Virus record (IMG/VR): IMGVR_UViG_3300037483_001046
Reading direction: 5' to 3' (one strand)
Source: a virus
Length of the DNA: 64,000 nucleotides
In this document: in pieces, positions 35,292-56,234 of the stretch
How the letters are laid out: the number at the start of each line of letters is the position of its first letter
Numbering within the stretch: position 1 is the first letter of the stretch
Notes under the pieces: model-generated
Told to the model about the DNA's origin: nothing
The model's input: the letters and a program-made list of their open reading frames with translations, nothing else
Database searches by the model: none
Program-made: the position numbers and the translations under genes

Positions 35292-35552
35292 ATGAAGATT
35301 TGGCTTAGCGATTATGGACCCACAATGGGCGCTGGCTCTGGCCTTGGCTATAGCAAATGCAACGGCTCTGGAAATGGAAATGGCGATGGCAATGGCGCTG
35401 GATTTGGCATTGGCTCTGGCATTGGCATTGGCAATGGCAATGGCTATGGCTCTGGCTTTGGAGCTGGCGATGGCGCTGGTGATGGCGCTGGCCGCGGCCA
35501 TGATGGATCGAAAGGTCAAAAGAGAAGAACTTATAAGGTAATCGAGATATAA
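35292..35552 (+). CDS. Gly-X repeat micro-protein, copy 1
   Basis: MKIWLSDYGPT-(GX)n-QKRRTYKVIEI. Confidence 0.7.
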   Translation: MKIWLSDYGPTMGAGSGLGYSKCNGSGNGNGDGNGAGFGIGSGIGIGNGNGYGSGFGAGDGAGDGAGRGHDGSKGQKRRTYKVIEI

Positions 35553-35627
35553 AAGTGGTTGACAACCCTTCCTTGAACATGGTAATCTGAACATGGTAAT
35601 GACCCGAAGCAGAATAGGATAAGGAAA

Positions 35628-35933
35628 ATGATCAAAAACGAAAATCTTATTGGAAAACCGATTGCGATTCGACATCACTACTCTGGGGTGTGGATGGGGA
35701 TCTTTCTGGGAGAAGGTCTTTTGCCGCACATTATTTTGATTGAAGGTCGAAGGGTGTGGTCTTGGTCAGGAGATCGACTGGAATTCTCCGAGCTTTGCGC
35801 AAAGGGGGTCCGAAAAGAAGATCGGTTGGGCATGTGGACTAAACAACATATTCCGGTTGGGCCCGGAGATGGGTTGGTTGAGCTAACTTTTGACATTTCA
35901 CAAAAAACGATCGACAAAGCACGAAAACTGTGA
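35628..35933 (+). CDS. small beta-rich protein (recalled as DUF6948-like; possibly Sm/SH3-like)
   Basis: LIGKPIAIRHHYSGVWMG...LIEGRRVWSW; promoter 35559-35588. Confidence 0.55.
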   Translation: MIKNENLIGKPIAIRHHYSGVWMGIFLGEGLLPHIILIEGRRVWSWSGDRLEFSELCAKGVRKEDRLGMWTKQHIPVGPGDGLVELTFDISQKTIDKARKL

Positions 35934-36313
35934 AGATTTGGATTAGCGATGATTATGGGCATGGGCCCACAAAGGGCCAGGGCATTGGATTTGGAAATGG
36001 CTTTGGAGATGGAAAGGGCTTTGGCTATGGTTTTAGCAATGGCAGCGGCTATGGATATGGCTCTGGATATGGAAATGGAAATGGCTCTGGATATGGTTAT
36101 GGCAATGGCCATGGTGATGGAAACGGCTTGGGTTTTGGCTGTGGCAGCGGCTATGGCTCTGGCAATGGCTATGGCGATGGCAATGGCAATGGCAATGGCT
36201 ATGGCTTTGGCCATGGCAATGGCTATGGCTTTGGCCATGGCAATGGCTATGGCTCTGGCCATGATGGAGAATCACGTCAAAAGAGAAGAACTTATAAGGT
36301 AATCGAAATATGA
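35930..36313 (+). CDS. Gly-X repeat micro-protein, copy 2
   Basis: MKIWISDDYG-(GX)n-QKRRTYKVIEI; overlaps both neighbours. Confidence 0.7.
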   Translation: MKIWISDDYGHGPTKGQGIGFGNGFGDGKGFGYGFSNGSGYGYGSGYGNGNGSGYGYGNGHGDGNGLGFGCGSGYGSGNGYGDGNGNGNGYGFGHGNGYGFGHGNGYGSGHDGESRQKRRTYKVIEI

Positions 36314-37110
36314 CTTTAAATCTCCCCGAGAACCATCCTGTCTTTCAAGACTTTCAACGATGTAATCCGTCGCAAAGAGGAAAGATCATTCAAGCTGTTA
36401 ATTTTTTACAAAATCGAATTGTGGGACCAGCCCTTGAAGGCTATCCATCCCCAAATGTTGCAGCTTTAATGATTTTGGGTGTCGGACCTCATGAACAAGC
36501 CCCATTTTTGACACGTGCCGAGGCTCATGAATGGTCGTCGCAGTCAGAATATGAGGATCCTATTCTTTGGTTGTTGAGACAATTTTCTGATCGAGGAACG
36601 ACTGAATATATTGAGGTGGTGAGGTGGTTGCAAGGGATTGTGTCGGACCCAGAACGTTTGGTATGCGCTGAGCGTTGTGATCTTGGATTTAAAGATCAAA
36701 TTGGGGGTTCAATTTTTGATCGATTAGATGAAATTTTGCCAGAAGATTTGACCGCTTCACCGCGAGAAACGCTTCAGCGATCGATCACCCGTCGTGCCAA
36801 GGAAATGTGGGATGGACCAGACGAACTTTGTAAACGACAGCCTTGGATGGATCAATTAGATGATGATGTTCGGGTTCTTACTCGATTTAGTGAGCTTTTT
36901 AATGAAGGCAATCGAATGCGTCATTGCATTGCGGATTATGCGAAAAATGTTTGCAACGGATCTTCCATTGTAATTTCAATTCGAGGGACATCTACGGCAG
37001 AATATAAACATGGAAAACTTAACCAAATTGTTGGATTTGCCAATTCAAAACCTCCTGAGAAAGATTTGTCTATAGCGAAAAAGATTGAAAGAAGTATTAG
37101 GCACAGATGA
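36310..37110 (+). CDS. PcfJ-like domain protein
   Basis: C-terminal L....EL..EG..M.HCI..Y......G.S.VISIR. Confidence 0.6.
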   Translation: MTLNLPENHPVFQDFQRCNPSQRGKIIQAVNFLQNRIVGPALEGYPSPNVAALMILGVGPHEQAPFLTRAEAHEWSSQSEYEDPILWLLRQFSDRGTTEYIEVVRWLQGIVSDPERLVCAERCDLGFKDQIGGSIFDRLDEILPEDLTASPRETLQRSITRRAKEMWDGPDELCKRQPWMDQLDDDVRVLTRFSELFNEGNRMRHCIADYAKNVCNGSSIVISIRGTSTAEYKHGKLNQIVGFANSKPPEKDLSIAKKIERSIRHR

Positions 37111-37295
37111 TGAAGATTTGGCTAAGCGATTATGGGCCCACAAATGGCGCTGGCCTTGGATATGGCAGTGGATATGGAAATGGAAATGGCTCTGGATATG
37201 GAAATGGATATGGAAATGGAAATGGAAATGGAAATGGCTTTGGATCAGGCGATGGACGACAAAAGCAAAGAACTTATAAGGTAATTGAAATATGA
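37107..37295 (+). CDS. Gly-X repeat micro-protein, copy 3
   Basis: MMKIWLSDYGPT-(GX)n-QKQRTYKVIEI. Confidence 0.7.
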   Translation: MMKIWLSDYGPTNGAGLGYGSGYGNGNGSGYGNGYGNGNGNGNGFGSGDGRQKQRTYKVIEI

Positions 37296-54080: not shown

Positions 54081-54315
54081 ATTTCTAAATGAAATCTGGC
54101 ACAAAAGTAAAACCATCCGAATCCTTTCTGAAAGAAAGTCCAAAATATTCTAATGTAGAATATGGGATTATTTGGAAAGTTTCAGACTGTGGTTGGTTTC
54201 ATGTCCAATGGACATTAAAGCCAGATATTGATTTCAAAACGGTTAGCGTTCCTCTTTTTGGATTGTACGTTCCGGGCGAAATCGAAGAAATCTAAAGCAC
54301 AACGAAATAAAAATC

Positions 54316-55335
54316 ATGCACAAATATACTCATGTAGATGCCTTATATCAGGTTATTCGCTACATTAATAATGTAAATAAAAGCGAAGAAGTTCCTGACA
54401 AATTTAAGATCAAATCTCCCGTAATTTTTAGAGGGTCCGTAAAGCTGCACGGAACCAATTCGGGAGTTTCTCAATTTAAAAATGAGCTAATTGCTCAAAG
54501 TCGAACACGAATAATAACGTCCGATGATGATAACCACGGATTCGCCAAATTTGTGGAAGATAAATCGGATGTAATCAATGAAATAATTGATAATATTCGT
54601 GGGAAAAATGAGATAAAAGAATCTGAAAAAGTGATCCTATTCGGAGAATGGATAGGTCCAGGGCTTCAGAAGGGTGTGGCCATCAACAATTTGCCAAGCA
54701 AGCAATGGGCTTTGTTTGCGGTCAAGGTTTTCGATGGAGAAGAGGGAAGATATCTTGATGCGGTTCTCAAATTTGGGGATCAATACAAAGAGCATAATAT
54801 CTTTTCCATCATGGATGCGCCCACATGGAGCATCCAAATTGATTTTGATAGCGAGAAGGACAAGGAAGAGTCTGTTGCCTACTTGGACAAGGTAACCTCT
54901 GAGGTTGAAGCGTGCTGCCCGTGGGGACAACGTTTTGGCATCGAGGGGGTTGGAGAAGGGATTGTATGGACTCCTATTGGAAAACATTGGGGAAATAGTG
55001 ATCTATTCTTCAAAACTAAGGGAGAGAAACACAAGAATGTTAAGTCAAAGAAAAATACAGAACAGCTTGAACCAGAGCTTTTGAAGTCAATCAATGAATT
55101 TGTTGAATTTGCGGTTACAGAAAATCGCTTGAATCAAGGGATGGGATCTGTTAGAGAGGCAGAGCACGATCTCAGCATGAAGAGCATCGGGTCTTTTCTC
55201 AAATGGGTTGGACAAGATGTTAAACGAGAATGCGCAGCCGAACTTGAAACGAACGGTCTTGATTGGAATAATGTTCAAAAACAGGTTACGCAAAAAGCAA
55301 AAGACTTCTTCATAAAGGAAATGAAAAAGATCTAA
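54316..55335 (+). CDS. RNA ligase, Rnl2-like
   Basis: Motif I VKLHGTN, AQSR, LFGEWIG.G.QKGVA, FAVK, GEGIVW, FKTKG. Confidence 0.85.
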   Translation: MHKYTHVDALYQVIRYINNVNKSEEVPDKFKIKSPVIFRGSVKLHGTNSGVSQFKNELIAQSRTRIITSDDDNHGFAKFVEDKSDVINEIIDNIRGKNEIKESEKVILFGEWIGPGLQKGVAINNLPSKQWALFAVKVFDGEEGRYLDAVLKFGDQYKEHNIFSIMDAPTWSIQIDFDSEKDKEESVAYLDKVTSEVEACCPWGQRFGIEGVGEGIVWTPIGKHWGNSDLFFKTKGEKHKNVKSKKNTEQLEPELLKSINEFVEFAVTENRLNQGMGSVREAEHDLSMKSIGSFLKWVGQDVKRECAAELETNGLDWNNVQKQVTQKAKDFFIKEMKKI

Positions 55336-55922
55336 TGTGGCACCTTAAATTCCATATAGAAAGTCGCATTTGCAAATGCGAAGTTGCTGAATATGGATGG
55401 GAAATAAAATCCAGAGTAAATCCTACATTAATTCTTTTTTGCCTAAAATGTAAAAATAAAGTTGAGCAAGAAGCATTAGCCGGTTTTATTGAAACGTTCA
55501 AGGTCAAATCCAAATTTGATCCAAACCAACCATTATCAGAAAAAGAAAGAATATTGCTTGACGCAATGTTGTCTGAAGTAACCTCAAAACTTGAGAAATC
55601 ATTTGATGATGGATTTTATTGGATCAATTTGATGAATGGAGAATGTAATTATGAGGCAAGAATGATGAATCATTGCGGGAAAACATCTGCTGGTGTTGTT
55701 TGGAGTCTGCGTGATCGATATAAAAAGCCTCATGTCACAATAACAGTTAAAAGAGATAGAATTATCAATATATCGGGCAAGAGAAACGAGCTTCCAGATT
55801 CAAAATACAGAAAATATATTCAGGCACTTTTTGATCATAAGATCATTAAAGATGCTGTGGATAAAGGAGAGCAACAACTGAAGGAAATGGGCGTAGTATG
55901 GCCGAAAGATCAGGAAGCTTGA
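55335..55922 (+). CDS. PcfJ-like domain protein
   Basis: EARMMNHCG...VWSLRD...PHVTI...I..ISGKRN. Confidence 0.55.
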   Translation: MWHLKFHIESRICKCEVAEYGWEIKSRVNPTLILFCLKCKNKVEQEALAGFIETFKVKSKFDPNQPLSEKERILLDAMLSEVTSKLEKSFDDGFYWINLMNGECNYEARMMNHCGKTSAGVVWSLRDRYKKPHVTITVKRDRIINISGKRNELPDSKYRKYIQALFDHKIIKDAVDKGEQQLKEMGVVWPKDQEA

Positions 55923-55928
55923 TATTTT

Positions 55929-56234
55929 ATGAAGATTTGGCTTAGCGATTATGGGCCAACAGATGGCGCTGGCATTGGCTATGGCAATGGCGCTGGATTT
56001 GGCATTGGCTCTGGCATTGGCAATGGCTATGGCTCTGGAAATGGATATGGCCCTGGCAACGGCTCTGGCGCTGGAAATGGATTTGGCAATGGCTCTGGAT
56101 TTGGCACTGGCAATGGCGCTGGATGGGGCTCTAGCAATGGAAATGGAGAAGCGGAGACTCAAAAGCAAAGAACTTATAAAGTGATTGAGCTTTCTTGGCA
56201 TGAATCAAAAAAGAATATCAAGGTTGAATTATAG
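55929..56234 (+). CDS. Gly-X repeat micro-protein, copy 8
   Basis: MKIWLSDYGPT-(GX)n-QKQRTYKVIEL plus short extension. Confidence 0.7.
   Translation: MKIWLSDYGPTDGAGIGYGNGAGFGIGSGIGNGYGSGNGYGPGNGSGAGNGFGNGSGFGTGNGAGWGSSNGNGEAETQKQRTYKVIELSWHESKKNIKVEL

Follow-up and report, generated by a model that had tools for sequence, protein, structure and literature searches.

Several proteins of the Sm, LSm and Hfq type carry low-complexity tails, which are Q/N or RGG in LSm4, RG in SmD1 and SmD3, and Gly-rich in Acinetobacter Hfq. A similar combination of a small barrel (here predicted to be Sm-like) and a disordered repeat chain is found in IMG/VR virus record IMGVR_UViG_3300037483_001046. The stretch analysed, hereafter the window, is 64,000 nucleotides long and phage-like, with 41% GC and long open reading frames (ORFs) all on one strand; it carries one DUF6948 (PF22253) gene and a dispersed family of small genes for (Gly-X)n repeat proteins. 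Fusions between DUF6948 and a Gly-X array exist elsewhere (P0025, P0016), but in the window the chain is a separate polypeptide, and it has no Arg-Gly character. As for the [G/S]Y[G/S] domains of the FUS family, the low-complexity aromatic-rich kinked segments (LARKS) and the high-Gly/Tyr keratin-associated proteins, they resemble the window genes in composition only, with no homology, and lack both their strict period of two and their fixed structured ends. The nearest mention that we found in the literature is the (KMGCCG)35 repeat of Iodobacter phage phiPLPE, a possible attachment site (Comeau et al. 2012, PMC3391216, Table 3). It is also a phage hexamer array, the complement of an NNC-GGC unit, but it has been described only as a DNA repeat and not as a gene. 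In full-text literature searches, neither DUF6948 nor DUF7666 nor the Gly-X repeat proteins of phages turned up as the subject of a paper, in agreement with an earlier reading of the letters of the window (the sequence-only reading), which knew of no described family of this kind.

We propose that the window genes result from a lineage-specific expansion of a short-form phage (Gly-X)n protein that normally follows the gene of an Sm-like DUF6948 protein, an explanation to which we assign a probability of about 0.6. New in this locus are the dispersed expansion and its copy number, the conserved tail with its link to long-form relatives, and the exchange of blocks between copies. The head motif AAGATTTGGMTWAGCGAT is present eight times, on the + strand only, whereas 0.04 occurrences are expected from shuffled sequence and none of 100 shuffles reaches eight. 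The tail motif TAYAARGTNATHGAR also occurs eight times, once as an orphan without a head (Table 1). The eight starts and the orphan tail had already been listed by the sequence-only reading; its count of eight heads holds, but the family as a whole is larger. A further copy is represented by P0169, a fragment of 31 residues from the contig to which the window belongs (a JGI contig of 127,419 bp, equal in length to the one with the PcfJ-like protein of the window). The two differences that set P0169 apart from copy 5 are present as an alternative contig in the source run, and it is therefore an extra paralogue that lies beyond the window; the contig carries at least 9–10 copies.

Six copies are intact and read in a single open frame as MKIW[LI]SD(D)YG..PT-(GX)n-Q[KN][QR]R[TI]YKVIE[IL], and two (copies 4 and 7) are frame-broken. 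Head and tail comprise 11 residues each and are fixed across copies. Between them every second residue is Gly, which makes up 44–50% of each copy body, and X is chiefly of the Tyr/Ser/Asp/Asn type, mostly N (55), Y (40), S (36), D (21), F (19), H (18) and A (16). The proteins are near-neutral (pI 6.0–9.1) and rich in Tyr, Phe, Asn and Ser, a composition that appears compatible with self-association. Purine runs resembling ribosome-binding sites precede most of the starts.

Across the eight tails, the ratio of replacement to silent differences (pN/pS) in the Gly frame is 0.12, with a pS of 0.70 and a pN of 0.085; within their YKVIE core there are no replacements (pN 0) and pS reaches about 1. 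Replacements are thus rare although silent sites are close to saturation, which shows that the Gly frame is the one under protein-level selection. The copies are thus, to all appearances, real and translated paralogous genes, which agrees with the translated peptide family with selected ends put forward by the sequence-only reading. Dual coding in the Met/Ala frame was considered and rejected. This frame and the antisense Ala/Ile frame are open by construction, only because NNT-GGM units cannot form stops there. As silent bases differ between arrays, a second-frame product would not be conserved between them, and that of the Met/Ala frame would differ completely in the NNC-GGC arrays of high-GC phages.

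The head shows a different kind of conservation. Its codons 2–7 (AAG ATT TGG xTx AGC GAT; positions 35295–35312 in copy 1) have no silent change in the eight copies, whereas about 33 pairwise silent differences would be expected from the tail rate; the observed pS is 0. RNA folding of the invariant head revealed neither a conserved structure (-0.55 kcal/mol) nor covariation. These codons might be kept identical by a constraint that acts on the initiation region, or else by gene conversion in the 5' part. No Rfam family matched at the copies, and no dedicated promoter or terminator adjoins them.

The link to DUF6948 comes from the position of copy 2. To avoid codon bias, we sampled IMG/VR for arrays by means of a pattern in which GG recurs at six-base intervals, and searched the loci with our own DUF6948 hidden Markov model (HMM). 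DUF6948 was found beside arrays of the Tyr/Ser/Asp/Asn type in L214, L226, L197, L236, L200 and L232, the remaining sampled loci being cut by contig ends, and nearly every sampled array of this type had an adjoining DUF6948 gene. In the first five of these contigs the Gly-X gene comes directly behind DUF6948, and in L232 DUF6948 adjoins four tandem Gly-X ORFs. The Gly-X gene also directly follows and overlaps DUF6948 in the unrelated phage contigs L122 and L123. In the window, the same HMM finds a single DUF6948 gene, the ORF between copies 1 and 2. The GTG start of copy 2 overlaps the stop codon of this gene (GTGA), which is the canonical position of the module, exactly as in L122, L123, L214, L226, L197, L236 and L200. 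Since the same order of DUF6948 and Gly-X genes recurs in unrelated phages, copy 2 occupies a conserved, ancestral slot.

DUF6948 and Gly-X genes appear to be among the commonest unannotated phage gene pairs, and the ESM Atlas contains clusters of hundreds of small viral Gly-rich proteins. That the copies are a branch of a very common class of phage genes had escaped the sequence-only reading. The window genes share with the usual two-gene unit the type of array, the hexamer codons and the phage early or accessory setting. They differ from it in their number (at least eight copies), in lying mostly far from DUF6948, in their fixed 11-residue ends, in less uniform codons and in being near-neutral, whereas the proteins of the typical unit are acidic. 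Several small Gly-X genes per genome with a common N-terminus and varied array lengths are also found in L198 and L232, but there they are arranged head to tail in tandem and have no fixed C-terminal tail, unlike the window copies, which are dispersed and capped at both ends. As for the DUF6948 protein of the window, its ESM Atlas model has a pTM of 0.73, and the structural neighbours outside DUF6948 are LSM, LSM14 and archaeal Sm clusters with TM scores of 0.53–0.60. The model lends moderate support to a predicted Sm-like fold; there is no sequence match for DUF6948 in PDB.

The origin of the fixed ends is suggested by longer relatives. A profile search retrieved hundreds of metagenomic Gly-X repeat proteins, in which the repeats are attached to DUF7666, DUF6948 or TIGR02996-type N-terminal domains or to an unnamed C-terminal domain. 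Among them, 42 proteins are of a long form, with a short head (M-E-x-x-I-x-x-F-L), an array and a C-terminal domain of about 150 residues. When AlphaFold is applied to 22 of them, residues 2–9 of the head form a helix (predicted local distance difference test score, pLDDT, 73) and the array is disordered (pLDDT about 25). It is followed by a confident domain of five strands plus helices, whose strand 1 comes directly after the array. The motif of strand 1, N-x-K-[IV]-Y-x-[IV]-D (for example NKQRVFYVD and NHRVYKIDD), can be compared with the window tail QKQRTYKVIE, and the window head MKIWLSD resembles the ..EKWLSD head of P0012. We infer that the N-terminal helix of these relatives has its counterpart in the fixed head, and strand 1 of their domain in the fixed tail, and that the window genes are probably long-form genes truncated just after strand 1. 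Long-form proteins (alignments A2 and A4; for example P0035, P0008 and L214) have the head, the array and strand 1 in common with the window genes; their C-domain, which has the motifs FAHG..T and WH..LTGSC..GR, was not found in the window.

Short and long forms would thereby be linked through the fixed ends, and the window can be seen as a natural experiment in which ends under purifying selection in eight copies indicate what matters in the protein apart from the repeat. The sequence-only reading had imagined two terminal beta-strands presenting a variable Gly loop; this idea found no support, and in the long-form model a helix stands in the place of the head and strand 1 of a folded domain in that of the tail. 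The long form has no match in Pfam, NCBIfam or PDB, and in fold searches with its model no match rose above noise, the best values being an E of 0.34 in Foldseek and a Z of 6.3 in VIA, the latter for a helical sub-part. A second layout was observed in P0001, P0005, P0007, P0145, P0222 and similar proteins, in which a Gly-X array stands between a short ME.VILRGE.P head and a conserved C-terminal domain; this layout, whose C-terminal domain ends in ..KWKGERWWIVAL.GEV...DK.GALKREIIGE, has no family match.

The expansion itself looks lineage-specific. Searches of the copies against Pfam, PHROGs and NCBIfam gave composition-driven matches only, such as weak Pfam matches to KRTAP and keratin head regions, and no curated family fits. 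A profile search of 1.84 billion representative proteins found none with both ends except P0169, from the same contig. Scans of IMG/VR and JGI metagenomes with the profile or the head pattern yielded no confirmed relative, and INPHARED has no near match or close relative. In metagenomes, 120 loci with the 16-base head pattern were dismissed as chance single matches with no Gly arrays. The nearest phage relative that we found, L246, shares three proteins with the window at 50–59% identity. It has no Gly-X gene in the 15.7 kb around its TerD-family orthologue, and it is on this ground that we regard the increase in copies as probably specific to the lineage of the window. IMG/VR contains no relative of the PcfJ-like gene that neighbours copies 2 and 3. 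A lone short form ending in ..TTYVVEV is present in another phage, without an adjoining DUF6948 gene.

The arrays themselves are built of NNT-GG(C/A) units. Two-fold X codons end in T in 144 of 153 cases (94%), against 79% for the same codons before GGN elsewhere in the window, and 40 of the 45 TCN and GCN X codons do so (48% expected). Among Gly codons, GGC (129) and GGA (75) account for 92%, with 15 GGT and two GGG; Gly codon usage elsewhere in the window is GGA-dominated. The silent positions of the hexamer arrays are therefore near-uniform, although with their mixture of GGC and GGA the window arrays are less uniform than those of L122, L200, L214, L223, L226 and L236, where uniformity approaches 100%. 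Uniformity within arrays is also found in unrelated phage contigs of 27–68% GC, and the unit changes from contig to contig: NNT-GGC at 27–49% GC, NNT-GGT in L198 and NNC-GGC at 57–68% GC. Silent bases thus vary between arrays and are uniform inside each. The simplest reading is that the arrays undergo concerted evolution by slippage of 6-, 12-, 18- and 24-nt units, and that the variety of amino acids at X is kept by selection. That the 6-nt periodicity permits length changes without loss of frame was recognised by the sequence-only reading.

Blocks also move between copies. A block of about 125 nt is nearly the same in copies 2 and 5, with an exact stretch of 65 nt, and there are exact shared blocks of 42 nt between copies 1 and 8 and of 40 nt between copies 5 and 6; copies that share blocks still differ at silent sites in their tails. 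Gene conversion or recombination between copies is, to judge by these blocks, real. The middles, previously called hypervariable, are indeed variable but not freely so, being mosaics that share exact blocks of 40–65 nt. Logan contigs break at the arrays, and the joints in them are explained by shared blocks together with the extra paralogue, not by deletions. A single genome thus displays both modes of repeat evolution, slippage of units and exchange among the copies.

Four other explanations rank below a DUF6948-linked expansion. The one that survives best, although we consider it unlikely, was also raised by the sequence-only reading and sees in the copies a selfish or recombinogenic coding minisatellite. 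The cassette would spread between genes, and its head DNA and repeats would form portable homology that shuffles or deletes accessory genes. The exchange of blocks speaks for such an element, as do the dispersal of the copies over 25 kb between unrelated genes, with a conserved unit that runs exactly from start codon to stop, the lack of silent change in head codons 2–7, the existence of an orphan tail and of a head fused to the frame of another ORF, and the absence of a copy beside the TerD-family gene of L246. Recombination between copies is the part of the proposal that stands; mobility does not. As the sequence-only reading had itself remarked, there are no terminal inverted repeats (TIRs), target-site duplications (TSDs) or transposase: we found no TSD or TIR of 7 nt or more, the flanks are 29–34% identical and thus not conserved, and no ORF scanned in the window resembled a transposase, an endonuclease or a reverse transcriptase (RT), so that features of transposable or miniature inverted-repeat elements are absent among them. 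In addition, the tail is under strong protein-level selection, the position of copy 2 is conserved across unrelated phages, the explanation of the Logan joints leaves no deletions to account for, and the presence of other paralogue families in the window indicates that this phage duplicates genes generally.

It is quite improbable that the copies encode precursors of ribosomally synthesised and post-translationally modified peptides (RiPPs) or bacteriocin-like peptides, with the head as leader, the tail as follower and the variable Gly-rich core as product. Precedents exist in the prochlorosins, whose precursors form a multi-copy family, and in Gly-rich microcins; the window has multi-copy small ORFs with conserved ends and variable cores, and a gene for a 2-oxoglutarate (2OG)-Fe(II) oxygenase is found 2.3 kb upstream of copy 1. 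However, none of the neighbours tested could be recognised as a maturation enzyme, a leader protease or an exporter (absence from Pfam being no proof), there is no double-glycine leader, and the cores are low-complexity repeats rather than defined peptides. The same type of array is moreover fused to folded domains that look intracellular (DUF7666, DUF6948 and the C-domain of the long form).

Alternatively, the proteins might act as decoys or jammers of host proteolysis or of another host machine, which we regard as very improbable. Gly-rich tracts can resist unfoldases, as exemplified by the Gly-Ala repeat of EBNA1 and the slippery Gly-rich tracts of ClpXP substrates; the chains described here are disordered and nearly half Gly, and a ClpS adaptor gene ends 16 nt before copy 4. 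Nevertheless, the copy next to ClpS is one of the broken ones, and in other phage loci the recurrent neighbour is DUF6948, with no recurrent link to Clp. Hardly credible is a role of the arrays as targets of hypermutation as in diversity-generating retroelements, in which the adenines of an (AAT-GGC)n template would be mutagenised: X codons do vary at positions 1 and 2 with T at position 3 (NNT cannot become a stop) and AAT is the commonest of them (48), but no ORF of more than 200 aa in the window has a YxDD motif, array lengths differ so that no single template could serve all, the X alphabet is restricted to N, Y, S, D, F, H and A instead of all 16 NNT codons, uniform codons also occur in single-copy Gly-X genes on contigs without RT among the called genes, and the NNC-GGC arrays at high GC and the one NNT-GGT array fit homogenisation better than a fixed template.

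Returning to an expansion linked to DUF6948, our best guess is that the proteins serve RNA handling, as low-complexity and multivalent partners of the Sm-like protein. Each would be a disordered chain rich in Tyr, Asn and Ser, whose two conserved ends might dock it to a common partner. The DUF6948 protein is the simplest candidate for this partner, because the ends are alike in eight genes and DUF6948 is encoded once. Many sticky chains of different sizes would then decorate one RNA-binding hub and, as detachable tails in trans, do what low-complexity tails do in LSm4, SmD or Hfq. It is tempting to go further and to picture one DUF6948 ring that wears Gly-X chains of varied length and chemistry, docked by their common head and tail, in an RNA–protein condensate around RNA-repair enzymes, with slippage and gene conversion retuning the chains; this more elaborate scheme is tentative, and we would bet against it. 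If an RNA-handling hub with detachable low-complexity tails did exist, it would be a phage counterpart of eukaryotic LSm and P-body biology.

Several observations weigh against the proposed expansion and its function. Only one copy of the eight adjoins DUF6948: the gene is directly upstream of copy 2 alone, copy 1 lies upstream of it, and the six other copies and the orphan are 1–20 kb away. Two of the eight copies are frame-broken, and hence not every copy need be functional. The three sequencing runs that contain the sequence are all DNA. As to structure, the TM scores of DUF6948 to LSm proteins are moderate, complex prediction for DUF6948 and copy 3 returned no verdict (score 0.00), and the AlphaFold monomer of copy 3, a disordered chain, is unconfident (pLDDT 42) and shows neither hairpin nor docking, so that it lends no support to the two-stranded fold mentioned above. 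The derivation from the long form is affected as well: tail and strand 1 are matched through a motif of about 7 residues, and an HMM of the long-form C-domain, which finds L214, L123 and L122, finds no window ORF at E<1.

Table 1. Positions of the Gly-X copies and other features in the window, and of tandem Gly-X sets in two other contigs
Feature	Positions	Strand	Head motif	Tail motif	Description
Orphan 3' remnant	30642–30713	+		30693	about 5 Gly-X units, intact QKQRTYKVIEL tail and stop
2OG-Fe(II) oxygenase	32442–32963
Copy 1	35292–35552	+	35295	35532	intact, 86 aa; start 4 nt past upstream stop; end 75 nt before DUF6948 gene
DUF6948 (PF22253) gene	35628–35933	+			101 aa; predicted Sm/LSm-like fold
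Copy 2	35930–36313	+	35933	36293	intact, 127 aa; longest array
PcfJ-like gene	36310–37107				between copies 2 and 3
Copy 3	37107–37295	+	37113	37275	intact, 61–62 aa, shortest; start overlaps stop of PcfJ-like gene
ClpS	39444–39764
Copy 4	39781–39953	+	39784		frame-broken; head and 16 Gly-X units, stop at 39912
Thg1-like	43751–44503
Tpt1/KptA RNA 2'-phosphotransferase	45571–46158
Copy 5	49025–49312	+	49028	49265	intact, 95 aa; usual stop lost, 9 more residues past tail
Copy 6	49675–49971	+	49678	49951	intact, 98 aa; His-rich array
ATP-dependent ligase/capping-enzyme-like nucleotidyltransferase	50571–51227
Copy 7	51280–51433	+	51283	51413	frame-broken at array/tail junction; head frame ends at 51426
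TerD-family protein	51540–53828				762 aa
RNA ligase	54316–55335
Copy 8	55929–56234	+	55932	56175	intact, 101 aa; 13 extra residues past tail; just upstream of sigma-70-family gene
Tandem Gly-X ORFs, L198 (IMG/VR contig, 119 kb)	810–1982				four ORFs starting MNIKIS[KR]G; Gly only GGT
Tandem Gly-X ORFs, L232	2349–3442	reverse			four ORFs starting MKEKHNM; NNC-GGC

The individual copies differ in their relation to neighbouring genes (Table 1). The stop of copy 2 overlaps the start of the PcfJ-like gene (ATGA), and copy 3 is found in identical form in Logan contig L121. The sequence-only reading had also considered a portable translational coupler. This idea fits copies 2 and 3 only, the other copies being separated from their neighbours by gaps of 4–52 nt and two of them being broken. 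Copy 4, behind ClpS, has a degenerate tail (..SFKILEL..) in another frame, while copy 7, between the ATP-dependent ligase and the TerD-family gene, has an intact tail, KQRIYKVIEL, in the +1 frame. The broken copy 7 is spanned unchanged by a Logan contig of the sediment run that holds the sequence best, and the broken end of copy 4 is covered unchanged by a contig from a different sample. As independent assemblies agree, these breaks are not slips of one assembler; they could be population variants.

The orphan remnant lies in the +1 frame relative to an upstream ORF of 168 aa (30164–30670), whose end reads in a Trp frame (..WIWKWKWP-stop). A +1 shift within 30164–30713 would join this ORF to GYGNGNGHDGY-QKQRTYKVIEL, and the joined product would have the layout N-domain, array and tail, like DUF7666 proteins. 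This layout may reflect a decayed fusion or a sequencing indel. At copy 4, the Met/Ala frame continues without a stop into an ORF (39803–40279) that resembles protein tyrosine phosphatases and dual-specificity phosphatases, with an HCxxGxxRS motif and a weak DSPc match (E 5e-4); a separate start for this ORF is not obvious outside the repeat.

Around the copies, genes for RNA and protein handling are frequent (Table 1), and the region is rich in RNA-repair functions, among them Thg1-like, Tpt1/KptA, an RNA ligase, the second ligase and the TerD-family giant; this fits an RNA role, although it is no proof of one. A second PcfJ-like gene at 55335–55922 was considered, but neither Pfam (E<=0.01) nor BLAST against 36310–37107 supports it; by eye, a stretch containing H-C.. 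looks vaguely PcfJ-like. The TerD-family protein has many homologues of 40–59% identity in phage-like contigs and in bacteria, some of them named TerD family or 'stress response protein SCP2', and no Pfam domain is reported for the window copy. Finally, the window encodes three paralogous small proteins that are 40–42% identical (22528–23124, 40735–41124 and 50207–50557). Two of them lie 0.5–1 kb downstream of Gly-X copies 4 and 6, and they may be traces of old block duplications.

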